Source: an uncultured Planctomycetota bacterium
Lineage (GTDB): Bacteria; Planctomycetota; Brocadiia; Brocadiales; Brocadiaceae
Direction of reading: 5' to 3'
Length of the DNA: 32,000 bases
NCBI GenBank assembly: GCA_963709355.1
Contig: CAVPVY010000005.1
Coordinates: 1,193,722 to 1,225,721, forward strand
Positions 6,863 through 31,294 of this stretch are shown here, piece by piece (the first letter of the stretch is position 1; the number at the start of each line of letters is the position of its first letter). The translations under genes and the position numbers were made by a program. The notes under the pieces are model-generated. The model searched no databases. It saw nothing but the letters and a program-made list of their open reading frames with translations, and was not told the origin of the DNA.

Positions 6863-7087
6863 GGGATGTATAAAATAATTAATTAATTTTAAATCGTAAA
6901 TATTAATATTTTAATTTACTGTTTTATTATACTATAAATACAATTTATTTAATTAATTATTTCATAACATTTATACTTAAATTAAGTTGAAATAGAATTT
7001 CAAATAGCTTATATTCATTCACGAATTCAATGTTAAAGAATTATTAATTACACAAATTTATTGTTTATGTTTTTAAGGAGGATAATT

Positions 7088-7690
7088 ATGTCAACAATTA
7101 TAAAAGATGATATTTTGCAAAAAAAGAGCAAGGAAACAGGTGGTAATGAAAAAGTTAATAAAATAATGGATACAATTGTTAAATCATCATTGCATCCGAC
7201 TATTGTTAAAAATGAAAAACCAGCATCATATGGACCTGCCAAACCCTCAAAAATAATTGCTAAAAAAGATATTTTCAGCGGTGTGGTATTAATAGAGGGA
7301 GAAAACGCTGAAGAAATTAATGATATAAAAGGAAAGCTTCTAAATGAGCTAAAGCCTTCGAATGAGATAGAGTCAATAATAGTAGACCGTATTATTACTA
7401 ATATATGGAGATTAAAGAGATGTTTAAATATTGAGAGTCGGGTTCTTGAGTATGAAACATCTTGTATTCAGGAATACAAACAAGGACTCTTTAAAGTCAG
7501 AAAAAGGACAGAAAAGGAATTGAATCAATTAAAAGCCTTAAAGATTGCTGAAAACAGGGAAAAGATTAGGGAATTAATAAATTATGAAACAATATTAGAA
7601 GATCAAACATTTAAGGCTCTAAACGAGTTAAACAAAATCAGGAATCAAGATTCGGAACAGGAAAAGAAGGGGAAGAAAATAAAGAAATAA
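7088..7690 (+). CDS. Hypothetical Lys/Glu-rich coiled-coil protein
   Basis: The ORF-track ORF starts at 7061. The ATG at 7088 is the one preceded by AAGGAGG at the correct spacing. I recognise no family motif. Confidence 0.5.
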   Translation: MSTIIKDDILQKKSKETGGNEKVNKIMDTIVKSSLHPTIVKNEKPASYGPAKPSKIIAKKDIFSGVVLIEGENAEEINDIKGKLLNELKPSNEIESIIVDRIITNIWRLKRCLNIESRVLEYETSCIQEYKQGLFKVRKRTEKELNQLKALKIAENREKIRELINYETILEDQTFKALNELNKIRNQDSEQEKKGKKIKK

Positions 7691-7893: not shown

Positions 7894-7922
7894 TTGACAA
7901 TATAAAATATGTCTGCTAATAT
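7894..7922 (+). promoter_or_regulatory. Sigma-70-type promoter of the ACP-led operon
   Basis: TTGACA (7894-7899), a 17-nt spacer, then TAATAT (7917-7922). It sits about 75 nt upstream of the ACP start. Confidence 0.5.
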
Positions 7923-7998
7923 CTGCAACTTATGATATAAATGAGATTATTTAAGTATTCATTTTCTGAATTTTGCAAGTTATAAAAAGGAGGCAAAT

Positions 7999-8268
7999 TT
8001 GAACGCAGAAGATGTTGAAAAAGGTGTCACAGCAATTGTTGCAGAAGTAACTGAGTTAGATGAAAAAGAAATCTGGGAGAAGCGGGATGCAAATTTCTTT
8101 AAAGACCTTGAGATAGATTCACTTTTAGCACTAGAGATCCTAGCACTTATTGAAAAGAAATTTAAAGTACAAATACCTGAAGAAAAACTTATTGATATTA
8201 CATCTTTAAGCGCTACAATTGGTTTGACAAAGACTGTTCTAGCCGAGAGTGGTAAGCTCACATCCTGA
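7999..8268 (+). CDS. Acyl carrier protein (dedicated, divergent)
   Basis: 89 aa with a DLEIDSL phosphopantetheine-attachment motif. TTG start 5 nt after AGGAGG (7988-7993). Confidence 0.85.
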   Translation: MNAEDVEKGVTAIVAEVTELDEKEIWEKRDANFFKDLEIDSLLALEILALIEKKFKVQIPEEKLIDITSLSATIGLTKTVLAESGKLTS

Positions 8269-8306
8269 TTTTAGTTATATTTAATTTAGATTTAGCATGT
8301 CATACG

Positions 8307-8373
8307 ATTTTACCCCCCCACTTTATATCCTTATACATTAATAACGGAGATAAATGGGGGTAAAACTTTTTTA
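8307..8373 (+). terminator. Terminator/attenuator-like hairpin between the ACP and fabZ genes
   Basis: TTTTACCCCC (8307-8316) pairs with GGGGGTAAAA (8355-8364) and is followed by CTTTTTTAT. The loop is unusually large at 38 nt. Confidence 0.35.
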
Positions 8374-8423
8374 TAGAAAAAGAAGAATTAAATCTCATTA
8401 ATTATAAATAGAGTAAGAAATCT

Positions 8424-8873
8424 ATGATACTTTTTGAAGAAATTCGAAGCCTACTACCTCAAAAATATCCTTTTTTGTTTATTGATAGGGTTGTTGAGTT
8501 TGAAGAAGGAAAAAAAATTGTTTGTGTGAAGAATGTCTCTGGAAACGAACCTGTTTTTGTTGGCCACTTTCCTGATTTTGCAATCATGCCGGGTGTTTTA
8601 ATAATAGAAGCAATGGCACAGGCATCAATAATATTATTTAAAAAGAGCCTTACTATTAAACATGGTGGGGACACGGTTTTTTTGCTAGCTTCTGTTAGTA
8701 ATGCAAGATTTATGAAACCAGTTTTTCCTGGCGATCAGCTTTTAATTGAAATTATTGCTGAAAAGATTGTTTCAAAAGGAGCTATAATTCACGCGACAGT
8801 GAATGTTGGCGAGAAAATAGTTGCAAAAGCTAATTTAACTTTCGGCATTGCTGAAAAAGGTACATTAATATAG
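8424..8873 (+). CDS. fabZ: 3-hydroxyacyl-ACP dehydratase, FabZ family
   Basis: [14 protein letters not shown] and the catalytic His motif [20 protein letters not shown]. Confidence 0.85.
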
Positions 8874-8877
8874 TTCT

Positions 8878-10098
8878 ATGAATAGGCGCGTAGTAATAAC
8901 GGGTGTGGGGATGATAACCCCTATAGGTTCTGGTAAAGATGTATTCTGGAAATCGCTTATAGCCGGAGAATCTGGGGTTGATAATGTAACGTGTATTGAT
9001 ACCTCTGAATATAAAGTTCATAAGGGATGTGAGGTTAAGAACTTTAATTATTCAGATTATATCAAGAACGGTGTGCTTAAGAAGATTGGTAAAGGATCAC
9101 AGTTTGCAATAGCAGCTACAAAGCTTGCTCTGGATGATGCTAAAATTGATTTTAATAAGATAGAGTTGGAGAGAATTGGGGTTTCTATTGGAACAACTGC
9201 AGGTGAAATACAAATCCTTGAAAAAGTAAACTATATACGCCATAAAGAAGGAGAAGATAATGTAGACCCTGATTTATTTTTAATGCATCCGTGTAATAAC
9301 ATTCCTGCCAACATTGCAATTGAATTTGGTTTTAAGGGGCCTAATACCATTATTCCTACTGCATGTGCAGCTGGAAATTATGCGATTGGATATGCTTATG
9401 ATCTTATCAAATTTGGCAGAGTGGACATGATGGTTGCTGGCGGCTCAGATCCGTTCTCTAAAGTTGCATACACGGGTTTTGCAAGGTTAGGAGCAATCGC
9501 GCCAGAAATATGCCAGCCGTTCGATAAGAATAGAAAAGGTATGATGGTTGGTGAAGGATCTGGGATGCTTCTTCTTGAATCACTTGAACATGCACAAAAA
9601 AGAAGTGCTAATATTTATGCAGAAATTATAGGTTATGGTCTTAGTTGTGATGCATATCATATTACCATTCCGCATCCGGATGGAGAGGGGGTGGTTTCCG
9701 CGATGAAGAAAGCACTTCAAAGTGCAAACTTAGAACCTGAAGATGCTCAGTATATTAGCGCCCATGGTACAGGAACTCCGGCAAATGATAAGGCAGAAAC
9801 AATTTCAATAAAAAAAGTATTTGGTGAAAAACCAAAGAATCTTGCCATCAGTTCAATAAAATCTATGATTGGGCATACTATGGGTGCGGCTAGCGCAATT
9901 GAGGCTATTACATGCGCGTTAGCTGTACAGAATGATATAATACCACCAACAATTAACTATGAGGTGCCAGATCCTGAGTGTGACTTGGACTATGTTCCCA
10001 ATGTAATGCGGAGACAGAAGGTAAATATCGCACTAAACAATGCACATGCATTTGGTGGAAACAATAGTTGTTTGGTTGTGAGAAAATTTACAATCTAA
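8878..10098 (+). CDS. Beta-ketoacyl-ACP synthase (KAS II/FabF-like), catalytically intact
   Basis: The Cys-His-His triad is present: [25 protein letters not shown] and GHTMGAAS. C-terminal [14 protein letters not shown]. Confidence 0.85.
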
Positions 10099-10125
10099 GA
10101 ATTTTACTGCTAGTCAAAGTGCATT

Positions 10126-11367
10126 ATGGAAAATACAAGAATTGTTGTTACAGGTATTTCAGTCATCTCCCCTGTTGGGACAGGGAAAGATGAATTTTGG
10201 AAAAATTTGACAAATGGTGTATCAGGTATAAAGCCTGTTACTCTGTTTGATGTGAGTAAATTTAACAGTAAACAAGCCGGTGAGATAACTGATTTTGATG
10301 CAAAAGTGTATTTAGGACCGAAGGGCATTCGCCACATTGACAGGACTTCCCTGCTTGTATCTTCAGGGACTGTGCTTACTTTCAGAGACGCAGACATTAA
10401 AAGTAATACTTATAGCGAAGATGAATTAGGAATTGTTGTTGGCTCAACTTATGGGAGCATCGATAGTATTAGTTCGTTTGATTTTCAATCTTTGCGTGAA
10501 GGTCCCAATTATGTTAATCCAATGGATTTTCCCAATACAGTGTTGAATGCTCCTGCTAGCCGCGCATCAATTTTCTGTAAAGCCAAAGGTCTTAACACTA
10601 CGATTTCAAATGGTGTAACAAGCAGCGTTGACGCTATTATTTATGCATCAGATTTTTTACGTATGGGTCGTGTAAGGGCTGTAGTTGCGGGTGGAGTACA
10701 TGGATTAACCCATGATATATTCTGGGGTGCGCATAATTCAAAAATTTTAGCAGGAAGCAGGAATGGAACGCTAGAAATTAGCGCGCCTTTTGATAAAAGA
10801 AGAAACGGAATGATTATTGGTGAGGCTTCAGCACTTATTTTCCTTGAGACATTGGAAGATGCACTTAAAAGAAATGCTCATATATATGCAGAGGTTAAAG
10901 GTTACGGAACTGCATTTGACCCAAAGATGTCTACAGCAAAAGATTATCAGATTGAAGGCAACAGGCGTGCTATTATAGATGCAATAAAGAATGCCAATTT
11001 AACAGTACATGATGTTTCCTGCATTTTTGCAAATGCTTATTCAGGCGTCTATGGCGATAATATGGAAACGCTGGCTATTAATGATGCATTTGGTATGAAA
11101 TCAAAACTAATACCTATAACAGCTATTAAGTCAATGACTGGGGAGTGTTTTGATGCATCCGGAGCTTTACAAACAATAGCCGCCATCATGTCAATTAGAA
11201 CAAATACCATTCCACCAACAATTAACTATAAGGAACCTGACCCCGAGTGTGATTTAGATTATGTACCTAATAATAGCAGGGTTGTTCCTGTTAAGAATGT
11301 ACTCATAAATTCATTTTCACGCCTTGGCAACAGTTCTGCCTTAATAATTTCAAAATACAAACAATAG
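10126..11367 (+). CDS. KS-like paralogue lacking the Cys-His-His triad (chain-length-factor-like partner)
   Basis: It has the same fold motifs as the upstream KS. By manual alignment, Val replaces the active-site Cys, Asn replaces the first His and Glu replaces the second His. Confidence 0.8.
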   Translation: MENTRIVVTGISVISPVGTGKDEFWKNLTNGVSGIKPVTLFDVSKFNSKQAGEITDFDAKVYLGPKGIRHIDRTSLLVSSGTVLTFRDADIKSNTYSEDELGIVVGSTYGSIDSISSFDFQSLREGPNYVNPMDFPNTVLNAPASRASIFCKAKGLNTTISNGVTSSVDAIIYASDFLRMGRVRAVVAGGVHGLTHDIFWGAHNSKILAGSRNGTLEISAPFDKRRNGMIIGEASALIFLETLEDALKRNAHIYAEVKGYGTAFDPKMSTAKDYQIEGNRRAIIDAIKNANLTVHDVSCIFANAYSGVYGDNMETLAINDAFGMKSKLIPITAIKSMTGECFDASGALQTIAAIMSIRTNTIPPTINYKEPDPECDLDYVPNNSRVVPVKNVLINSFSRLGNSSALIISKYKQ

Positions 11368-11370
11368 TAC

Positions 11371-12825
11371 ATGTTATCAGCAGAAGTAGGCATACAATCC
11401 ACAAAGAGAAATAAAATATACTCACATTACGATGTTATTATAATTGGCGCAGGTATAGCAGGTCTTGTTTGTGGTGCATTTCTCGCCAAAAGTGGAAAGA
11501 AAGTACTCATAGTTGAACAACATTTTATTCCAGGTGGTTACTGCACATCTTTCAAAAGGAAGGGATTCAACTTTGATGCGGCAGTTCATCATATAGGAGG
11601 TTGCGGCAAGTGGAGTATTATTGGTCGTTGTTTTAAGACACTCGGAATTGAGATGGATTTTTATCACCTCGATCCCATGGATAATTTAATTTTTCCAAGC
11701 TTTAATATAGAAATCCCCGCTGATTTAGAGAAATACATATTACAGTTACAAAATCGCTATCCTTATGAAAAAGAAAGTCTTAAGAGTTTTTTTCAGGATT
11801 ACGTTAAGTTATATCGGGCTACGTTTAACACTGAAAAGAGTCAAATCATTGAGAAATACAAAGACCAGACATATGCTGGGATGTTAAATAGTTTTTTTGG
11901 GAATGAAGAACTGAAGATGGTGCTTTCTGGTCAGTGGGGTTATATAGGTCTCCCCCCTACTCAAGCGTCTGCCATTGGTATGTGTCAAATGATGATTAAT
12001 TATTTAAAGGACGGTGCATTTTTTCCGGCTGGCGGCACTCAAGAGTTTACGAATGTAATTTTTAAGAAATTTATTGATTTAGGTGGACATGTCATGTTAT
12101 CATCAGAAGCAAAAGAAATTCTTTTAGATAATAAAAGTGTAAAAGGTGTTAAATTACACAACGGTAAAGAAATACCTGCTAGTACAGTTGTTTCAAATAT
12201 AGATGCATATCAAACTTATTTTTGCTTACTTGATGGTAATATAGATGCAACCTTCCTTGAAAAAATTGAAAAAATGAAGGAAAGTTGTTCTTTTTCCCTT
12301 CTGTATCTTGGTTTAGGAGGAGAACTGGATTTAAGTAAATTAATTAGGGGTTTTTATCATACAGCCATAGATACAGATGATATGGATAAAGAGTGGATGT
12401 ATATTTCCGTACCAACAAAGATTTATCCAGAGTTGGCTCCAAAAAACAAACAAATAATATCAGTAGTTGTTTATTACAAAGATGAATTATATAATAATGT
12501 AAATAATTGGAAATCTTTTAAAGAAGAAATGATGACGAGAACTATTAGTCGTCTCGAATCATATGTTCCGAATATAAAAAACTATATCGAGGTTAAAGAA
12601 GCTGCTACGCCAAAAACTCTTGAACGATATACTTTAAATAAGAATGGTGCCGCATATGGTTGGGCAGTTAGTGTTAATCAAATATGGGAAAACAGGTTAC
12701 CCCAGAAAACACCAATTAATAATTTATATTTAACAGGCCACTGGACAAGACCAGGTCCTGGAATTTGCGCCGTTGTCTCTTCTGGCTGGGGTGTCTCAAA
12801 TTTAATAATAGAGAATTGGAGGTAA
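11371..12825 (+). CDS. FAD-dependent oxidoreductase of the phytoene desaturase (CrtI)/amine oxidase family
   Basis: DVIIIGAGIAGLVCGAFLAKSGKKVLIVEQHFIPGGYCTSF dinucleotide-binding N-terminus. The approximately 480-aa length and the C-terminal LYLTGHWTRPGPG motif are typical of the CrtI family. Confidence 0.8.
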   Translation: MLSAEVGIQSTKRNKIYSHYDVIIIGAGIAGLVCGAFLAKSGKKVLIVEQHFIPGGYCTSFKRKGFNFDAAVHHIGGCGKWSIIGRCFKTLGIEMDFYHLDPMDNLIFPSFNIEIPADLEKYILQLQNRYPYEKESLKSFFQDYVKLYRATFNTEKSQIIEKYKDQTYAGMLNSFFGNEELKMVLSGQWGYIGLPPTQASAIGMCQMMINYLKDGAFFPAGGTQEFTNVIFKKFIDLGGHVMLSSEAKEILLDNKSVKGVKLHNGKEIPASTVVSNIDAYQTYFCLLDGNIDATFLEKIEKMKESCSFSLLYLGLGGELDLSKLIRGFYHTAIDTDDMDKEWMYISVPTKIYPELAPKNKQIISVVVYYKDELYNNVNNWKSFKEEMMTRTISRLESYVPNIKNYIEVKEAATPKTLERYTLNKNGAAYGWAVSVNQIWENRLPQKTPINNLYLTGHWTRPGPGICAVVSSGWGVSNLIIENWR

Positions 12826-12834
12826 ATAATAACT

Positions 12835-14295
12835 ATGAAAAGAAAAATGATGTTAATTAACCCGCATAACCCTGGTAGATGCGGGGAAGAGAGTATTACG
12901 GTAATTGTACAGATGCCTCTGAATCTTGCTTATATTGCTGCCCTTACACCCGGTGATTGGGAATTTGATGTCATTGACGAAAACGTTGATCTCGCAATGG
13001 ATAATAATGGTGAAATTACCTTTGCTCCTGTTGATCTAGTATGTATTACTGCAGTTACTTATCAATCTCCTAGGGCATATAAAATTGCCACTGCATGCAG
13101 AAAGAGGGGTATGCCTGTAATTATGGGTGGTATACATGCCTCTGTAATGGCAGAGGAGGCTGTAAATTACGCCGATGCAATTTTTGTAGGCGAGGCAGAG
13201 GAGGTATGGCCGCGGGTAATTAGGGACTTTGAAGCAGGTAAACTGGAAAAGGTTTACAATGGTGGTTTACCCCCCCTATCCTTGATGAAAAAAGTATATC
13301 CTAATCGTGAACTCATGAAAAGGAAATACAATTATAAATTCTCGTCCATCGTTACAACTAAAGGATGTCCAAATTACTGTGACTTCTGCAGCGTTCCAAC
13401 ATTCCAAGGTAGAAAATTCAGGGAGAGACCATATGAAGACGTGCTTGACGAAATGGTCGCGACGGATTACAAGGGACTGATGCTTGCAGAAGATAATTTC
13501 TACGGACACGGAAAAAAATCAAACGAAAGGGCAAGAAATCTTTTTAAAGGAATGGTGGAAAAAGATATTAAAAAAGATTGGCTGGGATTCACAGCCCTGA
13601 ACATATCTCAGGATAAAGAAACTTTAGATTATATGGCTAAAAGTGGTTGTTTTGGAATGCTTATAGGTATTGAATCAACCAATGAGACTGTCTTACAGAA
13701 AATGAATAAACGTGTAAATTTGAAATTGGGTACAGATAGTTATTTTGATTGCATCCAAAAGATCCACGATGCAGGATTAGTTGTTTGGGGCTCTGTAGTA
13801 TTTGGCGCCGATGGTGATGATAAAGATTCCTTTAAGAGGATGACAGACTTTATAATTGAAAATAATATTGATATTTTAACATTTGGAATAAATTGCCCCT
13901 TCCCAAAGACACAATTATATGCAAGATTGGATTCTGAGAAGAGGATCTTCAGGAAGAATTATCCTGAGGATTGGCAATACTACGATACAGCGCATGTCGT
14001 TCACAGATTTGTTGACATGACACTCGAAAATTTCATTGACGGTATGCAGTATGTATACAATCATATTTACGCAGACAATAACTTAAGGACCCGTTTCAGG
14101 AACTCAATCAAGACTACAAACAACCCAAGAAATTCCATGTTTGCATTCAGGGTAGGCTCTGATTGGAAACAGGTATTTGAGCAGGTATTGCAGAACTTAA
14201 AAGAATTATACGATTCTGGTGATTATTATGTTGATTGCTATAAGTCAAAGGCTGTAACAGTTGAAAAACCAATTTTGGAAACTGCCACATCATAG
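12835..14295 (+). CDS. Cobalamin-binding-domain radical SAM enzyme (class B)
   Basis: An N-terminal B12-binding-like Rossmann region (DLVCITAVTYQSPRAYKIATACRKRGMPVIMGGIHAS) is followed by a CPNYCDFCSV CxxxCxxC motif. Confidence 0.85.
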   Translation: MKRKMMLINPHNPGRCGEESITVIVQMPLNLAYIAALTPGDWEFDVIDENVDLAMDNNGEITFAPVDLVCITAVTYQSPRAYKIATACRKRGMPVIMGGIHASVMAEEAVNYADAIFVGEAEEVWPRVIRDFEAGKLEKVYNGGLPPLSLMKKVYPNRELMKRKYNYKFSSIVTTKGCPNYCDFCSVPTFQGRKFRERPYEDVLDEMVATDYKGLMLAEDNFYGHGKKSNERARNLFKGMVEKDIKKDWLGFTALNISQDKETLDYMAKSGCFGMLIGIESTNETVLQKMNKRVNLKLGTDSYFDCIQKIHDAGLVVWGSVVFGADGDDKDSFKRMTDFIIENNIDILTFGINCPFPKTQLYARLDSEKRIFRKNYPEDWQYYDTAHVVHRFVDMTLENFIDGMQYVYNHIYADNNLRTRFRNSIKTTNNPRNSMFAFRVGSDWKQVFEQVLQNLKELYDSGDYYVDCYKSKAVTVEKPILETATS

Positions 14296-14327
14296 TATGT
14301 TGATACATAAATAAAGTAATACAATAT

Positions 14328-14370
14328 AAAGGCACGTCAACAGTTTAATTGATGTGCCTTTCTGTATTCT
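14328..14370 (+). terminator. Rho-independent terminator closing the ACP-rSAM operon
   Basis: AAAGGCAC (14328-14335) pairs with GTGCCTTT (14354-14361), followed by a T-rich stretch CTGTATTCT. Confidence 0.55.
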
Positions 14371-14461
14371 GATTATATTATGAGTGATTCCTAAGGTATT
14401 TAGAAACAAGACTTGTTAACTTAAGTAAAATATTCAAAATTATGGAAAAGGAGGCTAAGTA

Positions 14462-14590
14462 ATGATTGGCAAATTATTATCTTTTTCAATGGAGAAATCA
14501 ATTATTCCTGACATCAGCCCAAAGGCAATCTTGATTATTACAATTGCACTTATTTTTGTAATATTGTTCACCTGGAAAAAGGAGGGATAA
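14462..14590 (+). CDS. 42-aa single-pass membrane micro-protein translationally coupled to lpdA
   Basis: Found by hand translation: MIGKLLSFSMEKSIIPDISPKAILIITIALIFVILFTWKKEG. A strong AAGGAGG RBS precedes the ATG. Its TAA is immediately followed by the lpdA TTG start, and its last codons (AAGGAGGGA) form the lpdA RBS. Confidence 0.45.
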   Translation: MIGKLLSFSMEKSIIPDISPKAILIITIALIFVILFTWKKEG

Positions 14591-16030
14591 TTGCCTGATA
14601 GGAACTCAACCTTTGACCTTGCTATCATTGGTGGAGGTCCAGGTGGTTATGTAGCTGCAATAAAAGCTGCCCAATCAGGATTAAAAACTGCTCTTGTTGA
14701 AAAGAATAAAGTCGGCGGTACATGTTTACATCAGGGTTGTATTCCAACAAAGGCACTTCTTTACTCCGCGGATCTTTATAAAAAGTTCCAACGGGCAAAT
14801 GAATATGGAATTACAACTGATAAATTAACTTTTAATTATTCACAGTTTCATCGTCGTAAAGAAACCGTTGTTAAGCGCTTATTTCAAGGGGTTCAATTTT
14901 TACTTAAAAAAAACGGTGTCGAGGTTTTAGAAGGTGAAGGATATATCACATCGCCAAATAACATCTCTATACGAAAAAACAAAACGGAAATTGGCAAGAT
15001 AAATGCTAAATATATTATACTTGCAACCGGGTCTATTCCTCTCATACCTATTTCAATTCCATACGATAAGAAATATATACTTACAAGCGATGATATTTTA
15101 GTACTTGAAGAAATACCGAAGTCCATCATAATTGCAGGCGGTGGTGCCTTAGGGATAGAATTTGCCCATCTATTTAATATACTCGGGTCAAAAGTTACAA
15201 TCATAGAACTTCTAGACGATATCCTCCCGTTTGAAGAAAAAGAAATCAGTAACACGTTGAGAAAGATATTTATTAAAAGAGGTATAGATGTTTTCACCAG
15301 TACCTCTCTTGAAAAAGTTGAAATTAATAATTGTGCTAATGTTACTATAAAGAGAAAAACATCTCAACCCCCTATTGGCACTGAGAATCCTGCTTATCAA
15401 AATGAACTTTTAAAGGCAGATTGCTTGCTTCTCGCATTAGGCAGAATACCCGCATTAAGTAATATGGGCTTAGAAAGTTTATATTTGAATTCTAAAGGAA
15501 AATCTCTTAAAACCAATGAAGTAATGGAAACAAGCCAAAAAGCAATTTTTGCAATCGGAGACATTACAGGCAATCCTCTTCTTGCCCATAAAGCCTCAAA
15601 ACAAGGCTTAATTGCTGTAGATTATATTACAGGAAAGAAACCGAGTCAGTTAAATTATCAGAATATCCCTAGGGTAACTTACTGTTCTCCACAAGTTGCC
15701 AGTATTGGGATTACTCAGGAAGAGGCAGACAAAAAAGGATACAAAATAAAAACTGGAAAATTCCCTTTTGCAGCTAATAGTAAGGCAATTATAGATGGGG
15801 ATTTTGAAGATGGGTTTATGAAAATTATCGCTGATGAAAAATACGGTGAGATTTTAGGACTTCATGCAATAGGACCAAAAGTTAGTGAGTTCATATGGGG
15901 TATATCCCTTACTACTATACTTGATGGAACAGCTTATGAACTATCAAATAATATATTTCCCCACCCTACTCTGTCTGAAGCTATTTTAGAAGCAGCCCTT
16001 GCTGTGATTGGTAAACCAATCCATAATTAG
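14591..16030 (+). CDS. lpdA: Dihydrolipoyl dehydrogenase
   Basis: IIGGGPGGYVAA FAD motif, the redox-active disulfide GGTCLHQGCIPTK, and C-terminal HPTLSEA. TTG start. Confidence 0.9.
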   Translation: MPDRNSTFDLAIIGGGPGGYVAAIKAAQSGLKTALVEKNKVGGTCLHQGCIPTKALLYSADLYKKFQRANEYGITTDKLTFNYSQFHRRKETVVKRLFQGVQFLLKKNGVEVLEGEGYITSPNNISIRKNKTEIGKINAKYIILATGSIPLIPISIPYDKKYILTSDDILVLEEIPKSIIIAGGGALGIEFAHLFNILGSKVTIIELLDDILPFEEKEISNTLRKIFIKRGIDVFTSTSLEKVEINNCANVTIKRKTSQPPIGTENPAYQNELLKADCLLLALGRIPALSNMGLESLYLNSKGKSLKTNEVMETSQKAIFAIGDITGNPLLAHKASKQGLIAVDYITGKKPSQLNYQNIPRVTYCSPQVASIGITQEEADKKGYKIKTGKFPFAANSKAIIDGDFEDGFMKIIADEKYGEILGLHAIGPKVSEFIWGISLTTILDGTAYELSNNIFPHPTLSEAILEAALAVIGKPIHN

Positions 16031-16043
16031 TCTGTCTAACTAT
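16025..16043 (+). repeat. attL core (AATTAGTCTGTCTAACTAT)
   Basis: Identical 19-mer to 24571-24589. It contains the final AAT codon and TAG stop of lpdA. Confidence 0.75.
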
Positions 16044-16121
16044 TGTGTTTTGTATTACACTACCTCAAATCCCTTGTAAATACAGATAATTCACGGATTT
16101 TATAGTTTAACATCATAAACC

Positions 16122-16142
16122 TAAGTCGTACCTGAGTCGTAC
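16122..16142 (+). repeat. Inner direct repeat TAAGTCGTACCTGAGTCGTAC (candidate integrase arm-type site, attL side)
   Basis: Perfect 21-mer also found at 24427-24447. It contains GTCGTAC twice, 10 nt apart, and sits 8 nt from the integrase stop codon. Confidence 0.6.
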
Positions 16143-16150
16143 CCTTTCTA

Positions 16151-17320
16151 TTATGCTATGGCTAAATTAACCTTCTTGCTCATAGTTAACACATGGTCTG
16201 TTAACTTTTGAATAGCCATTTTCTTGCTATCTAATCCACCATGAGAATAACGCACCGTCATATCTAAGGTAGAATGCCCTAACATCTCTTTAGTAATTAT
16301 TGCACCAGTTCCCAAATCTGCTTGTAATGATGCGAAGGTATGTCTGAGATTGTGGAAGGTGAAATTCTGAATGCCTAAACTCTTAAACAGATTACTAAAA
16401 TAAGTGCTAAATTCCCTTACTAAGAGAACGTTTCTTTTCTCATTGCCAAAAATCATACCCCCCGTTTTATCTCTATACCCTTGCAGTTTCTCAGCTAAAT
16501 AGCTTGAAAGTGGAATTATGACCGCCTTCCCTGTCTTGTTTTGTGTGAACGTTATCAAGCCTTTAACGAAGTCTATATCCTGCCATTGAAGGCTTAACAC
16601 TTCACCAAGACGCATTCCGGCAAAAAGTCCCATCGCTACCATAAGTCTATCTTTCCCTTGCAGTCTATCAAGCAGTAATGCTATTTCTGGCTGTGATAAT
16701 ATCCTGTCTCTGGTCTGTGTTATTTTAAATGGCTTAACGTCTTTACATGGATTTCTTTCAATAATACCCGCCTTTATTGCAGTCACAAACACATTTGACA
16801 AGATAGAAACATCAAGGTTAATACTGCTATCCTTGACCTTATTCTTTTCTTTACGTTCAATTCTATACTTTTCAATAATAAATGGCGTTATCTTATTCAG
16901 TGGATAATCACCTAAAACGGCTACCAATGCTCTTATTGCCCGCTTTTTCATTGCAAGCGTGTTTTCTTTCGCTCCCCCGTTTGATTCCATGTATGTTTTT
17001 GAATACTCCTTTAATGTGGGAATCGTCTTTTTACATGGTAGATTAAACTTACCCCTGAGTATATCCGTTTTGATGATTGAAAGGAAATGCTCAGCTTCAG
17101 TCTTTGTCTTGATTTCTGGATATACCTTTGAAACCCACCGTCCGTCTGGATGCCTGAAATCTATTGCCCAAGTCCCACATTGAGACGGTACACCTTCAGG
17201 ACAAACCCTTGACCGCTTGCCTTCACATTCAACGCCTTTTATAATGACCCTGCCGTGTTTATCCCCTTCGGTTCTCTTACCCTTGCATTGTGGGAAATAT
17301 TTCCTAAATCTTACTGCCAT
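16151..17320 (-). CDS. Tyrosine recombinase / phage-type integrase
   Basis: C-terminal catalytic motifs GMRLGEVLSLQW, FHNLRHTFAS and LGHSTLDMTVRYSH. There is an N-terminal Cys/Lys-rich arm-binding-like extension. Confidence 0.9.
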   Translation of the reverse strand: MAVRFRKYFPQCKGKRTEGDKHGRVIIKGVECEGKRSRVCPEGVPSQCGTWAIDFRHPDGRWVSKVYPEIKTKTEAEHFLSIIKTDILRGKFNLPCKKTIPTLKEYSKTYMESNGGAKENTLAMKKRAIRALVAVLGDYPLNKITPFIIEKYRIERKEKNKVKDSSINLDVSILSNVFVTAIKAGIIERNPCKDVKPFKITQTRDRILSQPEIALLLDRLQGKDRLMVAMGLFAGMRLGEVLSLQWQDIDFVKGLITFTQNKTGKAVIIPLSSYLAEKLQGYRDKTGGMIFGNEKRNVLLVREFSTYFSNLFKSLGIQNFTFHNLRHTFASLQADLGTGAIITKEMLGHSTLDMTVRYSHGGLDSKKMAIQKLTDHVLTMSKKVNLAIA

Positions 17321-17561
17321 TATTCACCGTCCTTTCTTCTCTATCAATCCATTCCCTGATTTCTTTTGGCAGGTACATATTTCCACCTAGTGGATTGTTA
17401 GTTATATACCTGCCCTTTTCACGCAATGCAAACAGTGCCGCTTCTTCTACCGATGCACCAGCATAAGCTCTGGAATATCCACCGCCAAAATGCCCTGTTA
17501 CATCACAATAATAATTATCACCCCTTTTATACACTATGATACTACTTGGTCTTTTTTCCAT
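17304..17561 (-). CDS. Hypothetical 85-aa protein, overlaps the integrase start by 17 nt
   Basis: ORF with a purine-rich RBS (GGAAAGGGAAAGG) directly upstream. No recognisable motif. Confidence 0.45.
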   Translation of the reverse strand: MEKRPSSIIVYKRGDNYYCDVTGHFGGGYSRAYAGASVEEAALFALREKGRYITNNPLGGNMYLPKEIREWIDREERTVNNGSKI

Positions 17562-17576
17562 GCCTTTCCCTTTCCT

Positions 17577-17629
17577 GAAATAAAAAAGGCAGTTAAACTA
17601 AGTGTAGGACGGTACACCTAGCCACTGCC
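17577..17629 (-). terminator. Terminator-like hairpin immediately upstream of the 85-aa/integrase gene pair
   Basis: On the minus strand, GGCAGT...ACTGCC (17629-17588) has internal AGGTGTA/TACACTT pairing and is followed by TTTTTTATTTC. Confidence 0.45.
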
Positions 17630-17756
17630 TCTTATTGCCTGAATAAACAGGCATGTATTGTTTGCATCCCGTCCAATGCCTTATCCTACGTACGTTTAAC
17701 GTACCTTTAGAGTATTGTCAAGTCTTTTTATGTATTCTTATCATTTCTTTTTTATA

Positions 17757-17785
17757 TTGACGTATTATCATAAGCTTGTTAATAT
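17757..17785 (+). promoter_or_regulatory. Promoter predicting a leaderless transcript for the plus-strand module
   Basis: TTGACG (17757-17762), a 17-nt spacer, then TAATAT (17780-17785). The ATG at 17792 lies 7 nt after the -10 element, and no SD sequence is present. Confidence 0.45.
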
Positions 17786-17791
17786 TCTTAT

Positions 17792-18088
17792 ATGAGTGTA
17801 TATGAACAAGTGAAACAAGCATTACAGGATATCGTAGCCCCTGAGTTAAAATCAATCCAAGTGGAGCTACGGCGTCTTGATAACAGGATTGATTCCGTAG
17901 ATAAAAGGATTGATTCTGTAAAATCAGAAATCACCTCCGAAATTGATTCTTTAAAAACGGTCTTAACAGCAGAAATCAAGCGTTTAGACTCCAAAATAGA
18001 CTCCCTTGATGATAAGATAGATACCGCCATTCAAATAAGAGAACGCCTCGCAACACTAGAAGCAAAACTTGCCGCTATGGGAAATTAA
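17792..18088 (+). CDS. 98-aa coiled-coil repeat protein (RIDSVDKRIDSVK / KRLDSKIDSLDDKID repeats)
   Basis: Heptad-like charged repeats with an ATG start. The antisense 80-aa ORF is Ser/Ile/Leu-rich, which is the typical shadow of a Glu/Lys/Asp-rich frame. Confidence 0.55.
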   Translation: MSVYEQVKQALQDIVAPELKSIQVELRRLDNRIDSVDKRIDSVKSEITSEIDSLKTVLTAEIKRLDSKIDSLDDKIDTAIQIRERLATLEAKLAAMGN

Positions 18089-18090
18089 AC

Positions 18091-18195
18091 ATGAGTAACC
18101 TTGCTATACTTTTTGCCATTATTTGTGTAATTGGATTAATTGGTATTTTCTGGACACGTTACAGCCAGAAGCGTCATACTAAACAACCCCATTGA
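18091..18195 (+). CDS. 34-aa single-TM micro-protein (MSNLAILFAIICVIGLIGIFWTRYSQKRHTKQPH)
   Basis: Found by hand translation. It starts 2 nt after the coiled-coil gene stop, has a hydrophobic helix plus a basic tail, and overlaps the convergent dam 3' end by 17 nt. Confidence 0.35.
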   Translation: MSNLAILFAIICVIGLIGIFWTRYSQKRHTKQPH

Positions 18196-19060
18196 ATAAC
18201 TGTGTTTTAGTTTCAAAATTGCAGGAAAGGACTTCAACTGTCTTTGGTTTTTCAGTTCCCGGCACTGCTTTATGACTACCCTTGAAAGATTCATAAACAT
18301 ATTTATTCCAGCCTTGATATAATTCATCATATAAGTCATTCTGGTAATGTGTAACCATTGCCCTACCCTTTACGTTATGAAGCAATCCTGCAAGCCTGTA
18401 ATGGTCTTGCTCTGTGAAGGTATCTAAGTAATAAGTTTCATGCTTAAAGTATGGTGGATCAACATAAAATAACGTTTGTGGACTGTCATAACGACTGATA
18501 CATTCCGGATAGTCAAGGTTCTCAATACAAACGTTCCTGAGACGCTCTGCAATAATATTAAGGTCTTTTATAACGTTCCTGAAGCTCTGGACTGGATTCC
18601 TGCCTGTGGTAGAAGGTACAGCAAAACCACCCCGCTTCTGGTCTCCTGCAAAGGTAGTTCTATTGAGATAATACCACTGTGAGACACGCTCAATTTCGTT
18701 CTCAGGTATATCCCCAGCCTTCCAGTTCTTTCGTATCTCTTGCCATAATTGACGTGAGTAAGGCATGTAGTTAATGCATTCAATCAACGTTTGTCGGGTT
18801 TCAGGCTGTTGGATTACCCTAAAGAAGGATATCAAATGACCGTCTATATCATTTAAAATTTCCACAGGTGAATGCTCTTTTGCAAAGAATAAATGACAAG
18901 CTCCGCAAAACGGTTCAACGTAACAGGTATGCTCAGGGATATGTTGAGTTAACCGGCTTACAAGGTAATATTTCCCGCCTATGCGACTAACAGGGCTTTT
19001 AAGCACGACACCCATCAGTGTTTCTCGACTCCTGAATGCGTGCTTGAATCCACTGGTCAA
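18179..19060 (-). CDS. DNA N6-adenine methyltransferase, Dam (D12) class, orphan
   Basis: SRIGGKYYL, EPFCGACHLFF (SAM-binding FxGxG-like) and FYVDPPYF (DPPY catalytic motif). The true start may be the internal Met at 19015. Confidence 0.85.
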   Translation of the reverse strand: MTSGFKHAFRSRETLMGVVLKSPVSRIGGKYYLVSRLTQHIPEHTCYVEPFCGACHLFFAKEHSPVEILNDIDGHLISFFRVIQQPETRQTLIECINYMPYSRQLWQEIRKNWKAGDIPENEIERVSQWYYLNRTTFAGDQKRGGFAVPSTTGRNPVQSFRNVIKDLNIIAERLRNVCIENLDYPECISRYDSPQTLFYVDPPYFKHETYYLDTFTEQDHYRLAGLLHNVKGRAMVTHYQNDLYDELYQGWNKYVYESFKGSHKAVPGTEKPKTVEVLSCNFETKTQLFNGVV

Positions 19061-19223
19061 GGTCTGACTTTCGGAATCTGTTCAGCTTGCCGATTTTACA
19101 AAAGGGTATCTGACGCCTCATACACATACTGTAAATTGTGCTTAATTTTATCCCCAAATAATCTGCCGCTTGTTGCGGTGTTAAAAGCCCCCCGCCACCT
19201 TCTATGACCTTCAATTCAGGCAT
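18999..19223 (-). CDS. Excisionase/AlpA-family helix-turn-helix DNA-binding protein
   Basis: LLTPQQAADYLGIKLSTIYSMCMRRQIPFCKIGKLNRFRKSDLDQWI matches the excisionase-family HTH pattern. Confidence 0.75.
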   Translation of the reverse strand: MPELKVIEGGGGLLTPQQAADYLGIKLSTIYSMCMRRQIPFCKIGKLNRFRKSDLDQWIQARIQESRNTDGCRA

Positions 19224-19229
19224 AATTTA

Positions 19230-19436
19230 TTACACTCCAGAAATTGGTATCGTTTCTACTGGTCCCACTTTGGTACCAGTAGAAATAAGGTTATTTTTAA
19301 TAAGATTCCCACTTTCTAAATTCTCAATATGCTTCTTAATTTCAATAGCATCTCGTAAGAATGCTTTGACTTTGTTCATTTCGTGAATGTACTTCAGATA
19401 AAAATATTCGATTTCTTCAAATTGTGTTTTTTTCAT
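19230..19436 (-). CDS. Hypothetical 68-aa protein
   Basis: ORF in the leftward operon. No motif recognised. Confidence 0.4.
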   Translation of the reverse strand: MKKTQFEEIEYFYLKYIHEMNKVKAFLRDAIEIKKHIENLESGNLIKNNLISTGTKVGPVETIPISGV

Positions 19437-19569
19437 TTGTCACCCCTTCCAAATCCCCAGCAATAGTTTCAAGACATTGCCTGATTTCATTGTCTAAAAT
19501 CTCATTGACTTTTTTTGGGTCTCGCTCAGCCGCTATAATAGGACTTATCCTGTTTGGTATGTTTAGTAA

Positions 19570-19896
19570 CTAATCTCTCAATAGACGTCCCTTCGCAAAA
19601 GCGGCTTCCCGCACGTCCTTTGCTAGAATTAGCTCCCCACTTCGTTCTTTGTATTCCAACTCAGCCAGCAACGCCTTGAAGTGTTCTTTAACGGCTCGTG
19701 ATTTCGCTAAATCTTGATTTTCAGAATGTTTTAAAAACTTTGCCTCGTGCCATTTAATAACTCTTGGCAATTCAAATTCATGTTCTTTACCATTAAATTT
19801 GGAAGGACATCCGCTGTTACACCAATTTTCAATAGTGGTTCGTGATACTTTGAAAGCCTGTGCAAGCTTACTTTTTCCTGTAATTTTCATTGACAA
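19570..19896 (-). CDS. Nu1-type HTH / small-terminase-like protein, truncated by an in-frame TAG (see findings)
   Basis: The N-terminal KSKLAQAFKVSRTTIENWCNSGCP...FELPRVIKWH resembles the phage Nu1/TerS HTH. The same frame stays open for 50 more codons after the TAG. Confidence 0.6.
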   Translation of the reverse strand: MSMKITGKSKLAQAFKVSRTTIENWCNSGCPSKFNGKEHEFELPRVIKWHEAKFLKHSENQDLAKSRAVKEHFKALLAELEYKERSGELILAKDVREAAFAKGRLLRD

Positions 19897-19977
19897 TAAC
19901 CCTTAAAAATTTCCCTCTAACTGGTTAAATCCTGCGGTCGTTTCGTCCCTGCACGTAAAGGATTGTTGGAAGTACCT

Positions 19978-20445
19978 TTAGGACACACCGCAAACCTTTG
20001 TCCTGCCTGATTCAACCGCCTTCAAATATGCTAAATAGCTGTTGAAATTATTCATAAATTCAGCCCGGAGTGTAGCATTGGTTTTCCATTTTTCTTCAGG
20101 AGTCATCGGCTTCGGTTCCGGTGTTGTTCTTTGTGGTACGGTCGGAATTGACGCCCTTATTCCAGCGTCTTTTAGCATATTAAATAAATTCAAAGCGGCT
20201 TCAGCCCTTGCTCGCATTTCTTGAGTAACTTTGATTTCTTGTTTAGGTTCAGGTATTTTGTCAAGAAATTTGTAGGTATGTCCTGCTAGGGTTTCAAACA
20301 CCCGCTCTGACACTTTCTTTAGCCTATCGAAGCATTTAATATTTTTTCGCTCTCCCATAAATACCATCCGCCCCACAGAGTTTCGCACCATAACGAAATC
20401 ACTCTCGACAATTTTTTCATTTCCATCAGCAAATGTTTTTTCCAT
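19978..20445 (-). CDS. Hypothetical 155-aa protein
   Basis: ORF with a GGGAG RBS. It has a Pro-rich linker and a C-terminal amphipathic region (EEKWKTNATLRAEFMNNFNSYLAYLKAVESGR). Confidence 0.5.
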   Translation of the reverse strand: MEKTFADGNEKIVESDFVMVRNSVGRMVFMGERKNIKCFDRLKKVSERVFETLAGHTYKFLDKIPEPKQEIKVTQEMRARAEAALNLFNMLKDAGIRASIPTVPQRTTPEPKPMTPEEKWKTNATLRAEFMNNFNSYLAYLKAVESGRTKVCGVS

Positions 20446-20481
20446 ATTTAAAGCTCCCTATTAAAAAGTTTATAAAAGTGA

Positions 20482-20514
20482 GGCAGGCAGGAAAATGAGG
20501 AAATCCTGCCCGCC
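20482..20514 (-). terminator. Intra-element hairpin (terminator-like) between two unknown genes
   Basis: On the minus strand GGCGGGCAGGA pairs with TCCTGCCTGCC (10 of 11 positions) and is followed by CACTTTTATAAACTTTTT. An adjacent CCACC-GGCG-GGTGG mini-hairpin lies at 20513-20526. Confidence 0.4.
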
Positions 20515-20529
20515 ACCCGCCGGTGGACG

Positions 20530-20928
20530 CTATTTAATTCTAAATGGTGTTGCATCGTCCCGTCGCTTGAAACATACCAATCCGTAATTATCAAAATCCG
20601 GCTGCACGTACTTAAAAACACCAATTTCGTGTCCTTTTCCTATAAGGTTAAATGAATTTAAGCCGTCACAAAACACGGCAGCGCCTGGTTTTGCCTTACG
20701 TACATTTGAAATTTTTACGAGAACACCGCCTCTGGTAATGACTAACACCCGCCCCCCCTCAATTCCCGTCCTGTCAATAAACCCCAAAAAGCCGTCGTGC
20801 TCTCCCGTAATAGGGACCGCCTTGCCGTAACTCAACCCCACCGGGTGACCTTTTTCTAAACCTTTTCCGCCTGAAAAAACTCCCGATTTCCTCTTTACAC
20901 TGGTATCAAACGCCCGTGCTATTTCCAT
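20530..20928 (-). CDS. Hypothetical beta-rich protein (about 132 aa)
   Basis: I chose the start at the Met preceded by AGGAGG (MEIARAFD...), not the ORF-track start at 20964. Gly/Val-rich; weak resemblance to small phage capsid-associated (DUF2190-like) proteins, from memory only. Confidence 0.45.
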   Translation of the reverse strand: MEIARAFDTSVKRKSGVFSGGKGLEKGHPVGLSYGKAVPITGEHDGFLGFIDRTGIEGGRVLVITRGGVLVKISNVRKAKPGAAVFCDGLNSFNLIGKGHEIGVFKYVQPDFDNYGLVCFKRRDDATPFRIK

Positions 20929-20947
20929 TTTTACACCTCCTAAAAAG

Positions 20948-21331
20948 TTAAGAATTAATTTCACTGTTCTTAAACAATTTTAAAAATTCCAAATGAATAT
21001 ACCACCAGTCGTTGCATGTTTTCTGAAATTCCGTAAAATCGTTTCCCCAAAAACTGTTTATTCTATCTTCCAACCGTAAACTTTCTTGAAAACGTTCAGG
21101 ATGTTTCCCCCTTGCATAGTCTAGAACGCCGGAAGGGTAATTCTGATTGATTTTTTTAGTGGTATCCATGAAGTAACATTCAAATTTATCCATAGGCATA
21201 ATCTTGCCTGCTTCGATTAATTGACTTGCTGATTGTTCAGATAGTTTTACAATTTGCCCCTTTTTTATCTCTTTCGTTCCCTCTGGAGTTTTTGCAGAAA
21301 AATCTTCAATTACCTCATAGCGTAATGTCAT
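20948..21331 (-). CDS. Hypothetical 127-aa protein, ATGA-coupled to the primase-helicase gene
   Basis: Its start codon overlaps the stop codon of the upstream gene (GCATGACA). No motif recognised. Confidence 0.5.
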   Translation of the reverse strand: MTLRYEVIEDFSAKTPEGTKEIKKGQIVKLSEQSASQLIEAGKIMPMDKFECYFMDTTKKINQNYPSGVLDYARGKHPERFQESLRLEDRINSFWGNDFTEFQKTCNDWWYIHLEFLKLFKNSEINS

Positions 21332-23298: not shown

Positions 23299-23394
23299 TA
23301 CCCCATCCTTCCTTTTCAACAACCGCTAAAATTTCAGGCTTTTTGAATACAGTCACATGTTGCATGTTAGTGTTACCCACATTGACAAATTTTT

Positions 23395-31277: not shown

Positions 31278-31294
31278 TTTATACTACCTAAAAA

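Follow-up and report, generated by a model that had tools for sequence, protein, structure and literature searches.

A Cluster I-type operon of a Brocadiaceae bacterium and its collinear counterparts on high-GC contigs

Introduction

Ladderane biosynthesis is a long-standing open problem. The anammox bacteria grow slowly and cannot be manipulated genetically, and we know of no enzyme that makes fused cyclobutanes. The closest described system to the operon reported here is the anammox Cluster I, represented by the genes kuste3603-3608 of Kuenenia stuttgartiensis, which was proposed as a ladderane candidate by comparative genomics (Rattray 2009, PMC2649909) and was later studied by the Barends group (PMC10139942; bioRxiv 10.64898/2026.05.19.726425). 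In Kuenenia, and likewise in the orthologous clusters of Brocadia fulgida and Scalindua brodae, six genes lie on a single strand in the order ACP-FabZ-FabF2-FabFmut-PDH-B12 rSAM. They encode an acyl carrier protein (ACP), a dehydratase (DH), an active and an inactive ketosynthase (KS), a flavoenzyme labelled PDH and a radical S-adenosylmethionine (rSAM) enzyme with a B12-binding domain. Cluster I is highly conserved and highly expressed within the Brocadiales (PMC10139942), and it has been called exclusive or unique to ladderane producers (PMC10139942; bioRxiv 10.64898/2026.05.19.726425). The present report concerns an operon with the same six genes in a 32,000-nt stretch of DNA from an uncultured Brocadiaceae bacterium (assembly GCA_963709355.1, contig CAVPVY010000005.1, positions 1,193,722 to 1,225,721). 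This full stretch is referred to as the window, and all coordinates count from its first letter.

Results and discussion

Assignment of the window operon to Cluster I

Six open reading frames (ORFs) are encoded on the + strand between 7999 and 14295. In the ORF listing of the window they are separated by 155, 4, 27, 3 and 9 nt, which reproduces exactly what an earlier note on this DNA, made from its letters alone, had described. Pfam and NCBIfam models assign to the products a PP-binding domain, FabZ, two FabF-like KS, Amino_oxidase/crtI_fam, and B12-binding plus Radical_SAM domains. By gene content, gene order and sequence similarity the locus is almost certainly an ortholog of Cluster I, and the candidate cluster of Kuenenia that the earlier note had named for ladderanes is indeed kuste3603-3608 (PMC2649909). 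The locus is already known and represents no new system; it is one more ortholog of an accepted candidate cluster. Only species-level differences distinguish it from the described clusters, and its sub-lineage is marked by the 155-nt spacer between the ACP and FabZ genes with a terminator-like hairpin.

The six proteins share 69-92% identity with those of Brocadia-, Jettenia- and Kuenenia-type loci, and homologs of the rSAM enzyme and the PDH are labelled as Brocadia, Jettenia, Kuenenia, Scalindua, Anammoxibacter and Tripitaka. The full collinear cassette was found in at least about 19 anammox-type loci in a metagenome scan with the amxACP alignment, the locus counts of which are lower bounds. 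The nearest relative is the metagenome contig L090, which is syntenic with the window at 91-93% DNA identity. The host is low in GC (36%). The anammox host suggested earlier can be specified as a member of the Brocadiaceae, given the synteny with Brocadiaceae-type contigs and the nearest named homologs, which are those of Brocadia sp. AMX2, Kuenenia and Jettenia.

The carrier protein, the dehydratase and the ketosynthase pair

The product of the first gene aligns over residues 1-87 with the ACP in PDB 7auf (E 2.5e-45, ~92% identity over 87 residues). Its phosphopantetheine site is Asp40-Ser41, and both residues are invariant across the cassettes. Against the model of canonical ACPs, TIGR00517, it scores 47 bits, the cutoff being 70, and by its sequence it is a carrier protein of the amxACP type and not a canonical AcpP. 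The product of the second gene scores 150 bits against NF000582 (cutoff 113) and shares ~80% identity with PDB 8ayd (E 5.8e-72). It contains His48, Glu62 and Ile69, the last of which is the hallmark of amxFabZ, canonical FabZ having Gly at this position (PMC10139942).

The third gene encodes KS1, which is ~90% identical to chain B of PDB 9s5h (9s5h_B, E 4e-251) and in which the catalytic residues Cys163, His296, Lys328 and His333 are present; its structure-database matches place it nearer to FabF enzymes than to polyketide synthase (PKS) ketosynthases. KS2, encoded by the fourth gene, is ~85% identical to 9s5h_C (E 5.7e-228) and has Val164, Asn303 and Glu340 in place of the Cys/His/His triad, matching Val163/Asn298/Glu333 of Kuste3606 (PMC2649909). 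The second KS of Cluster I lacks Cys-His-His, with Val in most genera and the His residues replaced by Asn, Glu or Cys, and KS2 agrees with this pattern. The active and dead KS named in the earlier note are thus borne out. An adjacent pair of genes for an intact-triad and a lost-triad KS resembles the KS/chain-length factor (CLF) pairs of type II PKS clusters. For orthologs 85-90% identical to KS1 and KS2, formation of a heterodimer and decarboxylation of malonyl-ACP have been demonstrated (bioRxiv 10.64898/2026.05.19.726425). Crystal structures are available for the orthologs of four of the six operon proteins, namely the ACP, FabZ, KS1 and KS2.

The flavoenzyme and the radical SAM enzyme

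The product of the fifth gene carries the FAD motif GAGIAG at residues 26-31, is 72-76% identical to the PDHs of the named genera and matches PDB 4dgk with an E value of 6e-23. It scores 160.6 bits against crtI_fam (cutoff 238.1) and 167 bits against the carotenoid isomerase model (cutoff 587), and all equivalog models remain far under their cutoffs. From these scores only membership in the CrtI superfamily can be assigned. A function as CrtI phytoene desaturase was considered and rejected, as the protein falls under the subfamily cutoffs and its ortholog kuste3607 gave no crtI complementation (PMC4790861).

The last gene encodes an rSAM enzyme with 89% identity to its counterpart in 'Brocadia sp. 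AMX2' and 85% to the one in Kuenenia. Both of its domains are recognised (PF02310 with 40.6 bits, cutoff 32.1; PF04055 with 53.4 bits), and the CxxxCxxC motif is formed by Cys178, Cys182 and Cys185, which are invariant across the cassettes. The N-terminal B12-binding domain and the CxxxCxxC core make it a class B type enzyme by sequence, one that may use cobalamin. Its AlphaFold model (pLDDT 83) shows the fold of B12-domain rSAM enzymes. A fold search with this model returned AprD4, MgmA, TsrM, TokK, CysS and OxsB as the nearest structures, at 12-17% identity. The chemistries of these enzymes differ: AprD4 is a dehydratase that works without cobalamin, MgmA, TsrM, TokK and CysS are methylases, and OxsB catalyzes a ring contraction. 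The fold search did not discriminate among methylase, dehydratase and ring-contraction chemistries. Membership in the NCBIfam family TIGR04072 'rSAM_ladder_B12' was rejected, the protein scoring 87.3 bits against a cutoff of 360.

Collinear cassettes outside the known ladderane producers

Contigs of 54-70% GC (L001/L145, L171, L172, L155, L086, L169 and L087; Table 1) carry an ACP, a DH, a KS, a dead KS, a flavoenzyme and an rSAM enzyme in the same order as the window. The cassette therefore appears to occur outside the known ladderane producers, which contradicts the published exclusivity of Cluster I. The earlier note had stated that its interpretation would be refuted if the same cassette were common in organisms that make no ladderanes. 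This applies in part, as collinear high-GC cassettes exist in bacteria not known to make ladderanes; their carriers are all uncultured, being metagenome-assembled genomes (MAGs) or metagenome contigs, and MAG labels can be wrong. A scan of genome contigs with the rSAM alignment gave four loci above 50% identity among the matches listed.

The signature residues were compared in all high-GC loci other than L155. They are kept in at least six independent cassettes, to which L155 would add a seventh cassette. The ACPs contain the Asp-Ser site and an amxACP-like DSxLALE motif. The DHs contain His48 and Glu62, with Ile or Leu at position 69 and Ala in the Terriglobales-labelled L171, and they match the ApeI-like and ApeP-like Pfam models. 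The Cys-His-His triad is intact in KS1 and lost in KS2, and the cysteines of the rSAM enzyme and the GxGxxG motif of the flavoenzyme are kept. Compared with the window, the high-GC rSAM enzymes are 55-59% and the KS1 proteins 49-58% identical. A search with the window PDH was saturated by anammox sequences, and the PDH of the soil locus L001 was used as the query instead. It retrieved about 36 clusters of 57-100% identity with the labels Acidobacteria, Vicinamibacteria and Planctomycetota, followed by sequences of 47% identity or less from the Brocadiales. A partial PDH labelled Vicinamibacteria adds a further Acidobacteriota label.

Wherever the contig extends far enough (L001, L172, L086, L169 and L087), a gene for a ketoreductase (KR) of the short-chain dehydrogenase/reductase (SDR) type is located past the rSAM gene, directly or after added genes. 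No enoyl reductase gene was seen in any version of the cassette looked at. Because of the lacking enoyl reductase and the SDR gene after the rSAM gene, the conserved minimal set can be given as ACP, KS/CLF, KR, DH, flavoenzyme and rSAM enzyme.

Table 1. Contigs of high GC content carrying the collinear cassette
Locus	Label	GC content	Further genes or remarks
L001/L002/L003/L145	'Acidobacteria bacterium 13_1_40CM_2_60_7', soil	60%	SDR, FabH-like; glycoside hydrolases flanking
L171	'Terriglobales bacterium'	58%	contig stops after rSAM
L172	ENA contig, no label	68%	SDR, RND transporter
L086	'Planctomycetota bacterium'	57%	second rSAM, KS/dead-KS pair, SDR
L169	'Myxococcota bacterium'	70%	second rSAM, KS/dead-KS pair, SDR
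L087	JGI contig, no label	66%	many additional type II PKS-like genes
L155	soil contig	54%	

Bootstrapped neighbour-joining trees were calculated for the rSAM enzyme, KS1 and the PDH with a set of loci that excludes L171, L172 and L169. The three trees are congruent, which indicates that the cassette is inherited as a unit. The core anammox clade has bootstrap values of 100/92/95 in the rSAM, KS1 and PDH trees, and the clade of L001, L155 and L086 has 100/100/100, L085 joining it in the rSAM tree only. These topologies place the high-GC cassettes as a separate sister group to the anammox versions, which form a clade of their own without the add-on genes. Among database sequences, 599 relatives of the rSAM enzyme were found at E <= 1e-10. 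Five groups are seen in the rSAM tree: the core anammox clade including the window, a paralogous rSAM-KS-deadKS clade, and three intermediate clades (55-64% identity). In an exhaustive search of 1.84 billion representatives the scores stand at 686 bits, then 426 and then 351 or less, and measured in this way the rSAM family is a discrete island.

In three of the high-GC loci the cassette is extended by a second set. A second B12-rSAM gene, a second KS/dead-KS pair and an SDR gene are joined to it in L086 (5338-15838), L169 (4182-14720) and L087 (4101-21437). The last of these also contains genes for FGE-sulfatase-like, Polyketide_cyc2 and muconolactone-isomerase-like proteins, a ferredoxin, an enoyl-CoA hydratase, a third KS pair and a FabH/CHS-like protein.

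Two further observations concern the surroundings of these clades. A soil contig of 50% GC, L106, contains the full cassette at 10001-16307 (ACP 71%, KS1 68%, rSAM 60% and PDH 46% identity) and branches basally to the anammox-type clade; the genes around the cassette assign it to neither an anammox nor a non-anammox host. An additional rSAM clade, 58-59% identical, consists of solitary genes without the cassette and carries the labels Brocadiales, Tripitaka and Hypogeohydataceae. In one of its members (L088, 3080-4516) genes for a cbb3-type oxidase are found a few kb away.

No description of collinear Cluster I orthologs outside the Brocadiales was found in the literature. The antiSMASH class 'ladderane' is called commonly in many phyla; these calls are mainly KS-based and have never been dissected (PMC9902471, PMC7298704, PMC11968836). 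Cluster I is probably one branch of a wider and seemingly undescribed family of ACP-DH-KS/CLF-flavoenzyme-B12 rSAM systems that includes soil Acidobacteriota, Myxococcota and Planctomycetota.

Transcription signals

The features of the operon are listed in Table 2. The earlier note had described a near-consensus promoter in front of the ACP gene. The number of such sites is not significant in this AT-rich DNA (44 found, 35 +/- 6 expected). An alignment was made of the 200 nt that precede the ACP gene in eight Brocadiaceae-type loci. The block TTATTGACA, the -35 hexamer TTGACA, the spacer core GTCTGCTA and the -10 element TA..AT are conserved or invariant in the eight loci, as are the ribosome-binding site AAGGAGG and the unusual TTG start, and the DNA flanking the promoter elements does not align. 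The predicted promoter is thus a clear phylogenetic footprint, though the count alone is uninformative. The footprint at 7894-7918 includes GACA-N10-TGTC as part of an A/T-rich near-palindrome across the -35 hexamer and the spacer, which could be an operator for some regulator.

The terminator hairpin proposed for the operon end also holds: its stem AAAGGCAC(A/G)TCAA...TTGATGTGCCTTT is kept in the same eight loci with variable loops, and in the window it folds with -23.7 kcal/mol (z = -4.3). The claim of a single operon with one terminator stands with regard to the conserved promoter and terminator; it does not stand with regard to their number, as the gap of 155 nt between the ACP and FabZ genes contains a second terminator-like hairpin. 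This hairpin (approximately 8307-8372) is GC-rich and followed by a T-run (-33.3 kcal/mol, z = -3.85). The window shares both the stem and the T-run with L090, L091 and L093, and loci with a short gap have neither. Its loop exceeds the 8 nt allowed in the hairpin scan, which accordingly missed it. No Rfam family matches the non-coding parts of the operon, the internal hairpin included. The internal hairpin is probably an attenuator or a partial terminator. Judging from conservation, transcription would begin at the conserved promoter and stop at the conserved hairpin, and in this sub-lineage the hairpin past the ACP gene would probably raise the ACP mRNA over the mRNA of the enzymes.

Table 2. 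Features of the operon in the window
Feature	Position	Strand	Evidence
Putative promoter, sigma-70-type: TTGACA, 17 nt, TAATAT, extended TG	7894..7922	+	footprint in 8 anammox loci
Putative ribosome-binding site AAGGAGG, 5 nt ahead of the ACP TTG start	7987..7993	+	conserved in 8 loci
amxACP-type acyl carrier protein, 89 aa, TTG start	7999..8268	+	PF00550 52.6 bits; PDB 7auf
Internal hairpin TTTTACCCCC...GGGGGTAAAA and T-run, ACP-FabZ gap	8307..8372	+	minimum free energy; conservation in 4 loci
amxFabZ-type 3-hydroxyacyl-ACP dehydratase	8424..8873	+	NF000582; PDB 8ayd
KS1, amxFabF2-type active ketosynthase	8878..10098	+	PDB 9s5h_B; catalytic residues
KS2, amxFabFmut-type inactive KS, chain-length-factor-like partner	10126..11367	+	PDB 9s5h_C; alignments
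CrtI/CRTISO-family FAD flavoenzyme ('PDH')	11371..12825	+	PF01593, PF13450
B12-binding-domain radical SAM enzyme	12835..14295	+	PF04055, PF02310
Terminator-like hairpin, 13-bp stem, operon end	14328..14361	+	folding; stem conserved in 8 loci

Proposed pathway

The module is a self-contained carrier-protein system akin to the type II synthases of fatty acids and polyketides. In the first step of the proposed pathway, the dedicated amxACP would carry the growing chain, as shown for orthologs. In the second step, the KS/dead-KS heterodimer would prime synthesis by decarboxylation of malonyl-amxACP, a reaction also shown for orthologs, and would then presumably extend a short chain. The ortholog heterodimer is KS/CLF-like and favours C6-C8 in crosslinking (bioRxiv 10.64898/2026.05.19.726425). 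The third step, reduction of the 3-keto group, would be catalyzed by a ketoreductase encoded elsewhere; the SDR gene beside the rSAM gene in the non-anammox cassettes suggests its type. The fourth step is the dehydration of 3-hydroxyacyl-amxACP by amxFabZ, with a strong preference for C6 over C8. The orthologous enzyme dehydrates the (3R)-3-hydroxyacyl-amxACP of C6 more than tenfold faster than that of C8, has little activity on C10-C12 and refuses the canonical ACP (PMC10139942). It is quite likely that the first, second and fourth steps apply to the window operon. In the fifth step, the short enoyl- or dienoyl-ACP may be taken by the CrtI-family flavoenzyme, which would desaturate, isomerise or saturate it, and by the B12-type rSAM enzyme, which may activate a C-H bond by radical chemistry for C-C bond formation or methyl transfer. 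The conserved minimal set fits such a short enoyl- or dienoyl-ACP tailored by the flavoenzyme and the rSAM enzyme.

Three statements of the earlier note on the chemistry can be judged in this light. Its view that no step has been reconstituted is superseded, as dehydration by amxFabZ (PMC10139942) and decarboxylation of malonyl-ACP by the KS/CLF pair (2026 bioRxiv preprint) have been shown in vitro. Its argument that the lack of a reductase favours a polyunsaturated intermediate is weak: anammox bacteria have so far yielded neither polyunsaturated fatty acids (PUFAs) nor cyclopropyl fatty acids, and isotope labelling disagrees with those routes (PMC10139942). Its statement that the mechanism remains open is still valid for the ladder-forming chemistry.

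Nature of the product

We lean towards a ladderane, either a precursor or a part of the ladderane chain, as the end product of the operon in anammox bacteria. A number of points weigh against this assignment. No ladderanes were obtained when candidate genes were expressed in E. coli, and kuste3607 showed no CrtI activity and did not replace CrtI (PMC4790861). According to the authors of the later studies, there is no direct evidence that any Cluster I protein makes ladderanes (PMC10139942; 2026 preprint). The fold of the rSAM enzyme leaves its chemistry unseen, and its top structural match, AprD4, uses no cobalamin. The high-GC contigs are labelled Acidobacteriota, Myxococcota and Planctomycetota, groups that are not known for ladderanes. 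Finally, the C6-C8 preference of amxFabZ and of the KS/CLF pair fits the linear part of a ladderane as well as the ladder.

The occurrence of collinear cassettes with the same signature residues in MAGs with these three labels and in soil contigs leaves room for the main alternative, a tentative one, in which the cassette is a general module for an unusual non-ladderane acyl product and is common to anammox bacteria and soil phyla. Such a product might be a short conjugated polyene, or a chain that is branched or carries a single ring. The anammox ladder would then be made by kuste2802-2805, by kuste3335-3352 or by enzymes not yet suspected. The add-on genes for SDR, FabH-like and polyketide-cyclase-like proteins, KS/dead-KS pairs, rSAM enzymes and an RND transporter resemble those of secondary-metabolite clusters, and related deltaproteobacterial clusters accompany polyunsaturated hydrocarbons and not ladderanes (PMC2649909). 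However, the Brocadiales cluster shows the conservation and expression mentioned above, the product of the separate, add-on-free anammox clade may have diverged, and the non-anammox carriers, whose labels are fallible, could themselves make ladderane-like lipids. The chain-length preference (PMC10139942; 2026 preprint) could also indicate a dedicated short-chain synthase for the linear C6-C8 part only, with the flavoenzyme acting as a saturase and the rSAM enzyme joining a separately made ladder. The absence of an enoyl reductase from every cassette would agree with this, and so would the presence of saturases and isomerases in the CrtI superfamily, where RetSat saturates retinol, together with the position of the flavoenzyme under every curated subfamily cutoff. 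We consider this explanation unlikely, since the saturase activity is only predicted, no genes are known that would make a ladder separately, and crosslinking preferences may misreflect elongation, as the authors themselves caution.

The remaining explanations treat the locus as a known type of cluster. An aryl-polyene or PUFA-synthase-type locus mislabelled as ladderane-related would also combine KS/dead-KS, DH and ACP without an enoyl reductase, as aryl-polyene clusters do; the DHs of the high-GC cassettes match the ApeI- and ApeP-like models, and antiSMASH 'ladderane' calls are widespread (PMC9902471, PMC7298704). Such a mislabelling is very improbable. The window has a single ACP, a single FabZ and one KS pair; it lacks the hallmark genes of aryl-polyene clusters, that is an aryl-activating adenylation enzyme, a second ACP, a thioesterase, an acyl- or glycosyltransferase and LolA/MMPL export genes, and its FabZ has no ApeI or ApeP match in Pfam at E <= 0.01. 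An aryl-polyene cluster was rejected on these grounds, and a PUFA synthase was rejected because the match to the PfaA-type multidomain model (149 bits, cutoff 1010) lies far under the cutoff. To our knowledge, a B12-rSAM enzyme and a CrtI-like enzyme are not core genes of either type of locus. An ordinary housekeeping fab operon, which the matches of the ACP, FabZ and FabF-like proteins to fab family models might suggest, is refuted, in agreement with the earlier note. Neither the operon nor its flanks showed a FabD, FabH, FabG or FabI in the survey of ORFs and domains of the window, one KS is dead, and the ACP falls below the TIGR00517 cutoff and is non-canonical. In addition, amxFabZ rejects the canonical ACP, and anammox genomes hold a separate canonical fab set (PMC10139942, PMC2649909).

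The high-GC cassettes weaken the phyletic argument, on which the link between Cluster I and ladderanes mainly rests. If the wider family is real, either the soil carriers make overlooked cyclobutane or ladderane-like lipids, or the product differs and the anammox ladder is built elsewhere; both outcomes would overturn the working assumption of a cluster found in ladderane producers alone. The comparison also defines the minimal gene set for reconstitution (ACP, DH, KS/CLF, KR, flavoenzyme and rSAM enzyme). The high-GC cassettes carry the missing ketoreductase alongside and point to new source organisms and soils for the product. They would also provide non-anammox sources of the flavoenzyme and the rSAM enzyme that may lend themselves better to expression or cultivation.

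Neighbouring genes

Two genes adjoin the operon in related loci. The 209-aa Lys/Glu-rich ORF at 7061-7690, which has no Pfam match, is found directly upstream in all Brocadiaceae-type loci with 48-89% identity and was not found beside the cluster in Scalindua-type or high-GC loci. The second gene, at 14591-16030, encodes a dihydrolipoyl-dehydrogenase-like (LpdA-like) flavoprotein and is located after the terminator in ten loci of the Brocadiaceae type, at 63-89% identity. Because their synteny is confined to Brocadiaceae-type loci, both genes were kept out of the system. Between the LpdA-like gene and a glycogen-phosphorylase-like gene, an integrative element of 8.5 kb (16044-24570) is flanked on both sides by identical 19-bp direct repeats, AATTAGTCTGTCTAACTAT, at 16025-16043 and 24571-24589. 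It has genes for a tyrosine integrase (- strand, 16151-17320), for a D12 adenine methyltransferase (18179-19060) and for a primase/AAA protein (21328-23322), and it is missing from the otherwise collinear contig L090.

Farther downstream are a CbiM cobalt-uptake gene (27136-27771) and the gene for an HAO-like multiheme cytochrome (29910-31277; PDB 6t5e, E 1e-29), followed by a tRNA-Leu(CAG) on the - strand (29910-31378 together); these genes have no link to the operon. An anammox host and the use of cobalamin would both fit the presence of the CbiM and HAO-like genes. No hydrazine synthase was found within the window.

Comparison with known systems

Apart from Cluster I, a related anammox system is the kuste2802-2805-type set of AcpS, B12-rSAM enzyme, KS and dead KS (PMC2649909), represented here by L007 and L008. 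Its rSAM enzymes are 51-54% and its active KS 47% identical to those of the window, and its dead KS has Phe/Asn/Lys/Glu at the active-site positions. This set contains no ACP, FabZ or flavoenzyme and forms its own clade in the rSAM tree. L086, L169 and L087 carry a second rSAM-KS-KS' set, and when this was compared with kuste2803-2805 for orthology the differences amounted to a few percent only.

Clusters resembling type II fatty-acid synthesis in deltaproteobacteria such as Desulfotalea psychrophila and Geobacter combine an rSAM enzyme, a phytoene-dehydrogenase-like enzyme and FabF paralogs, and the products of D. psychrophila are polyunsaturated hydrocarbons instead of ladderanes (PMC2649909). 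In Geobacter, the loci L016 and L019 contain rSAM, KS and FabZ genes. Among the matches listed, the deltaproteobacterial rSAM enzymes are 34-39% identical to that of the window, and the gene order is not collinear.

A working analogy for the proposed chemistry is offered by Jaw5/C10P, the radical SAM cyclopropanase of the iterative jawsamycin PKS, which forms small rings on an enoyl thioester during extension (PMC13459092). The likeness corresponds to the 'type c' proposal for ladderanes (PMC13459092) and is meant as an analogy without claimed sequence kinship. Jaw5 adds a methylene group derived from SAM, whereas the rings of a ladderane would need chain carbons.

The KS pair finds its counterpart in the KS/CLF of type II PKSs, including the highly reducing ishigamide system Iga11/Iga12, where an active KS and an adjacent inactive homolog form a heterodimer that primes by decarboxylation of malonyl-ACP (2026 preprint). 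KS1 matches the ketosynthase in PDB 6kxd, which we take to be Iga11, with an E value of 5e-99. Unlike type II PKS clusters, the window contains no cyclases or aromatases. Aromatic CLFs typically have Gln at the active site, and KS2 has Val at this position.

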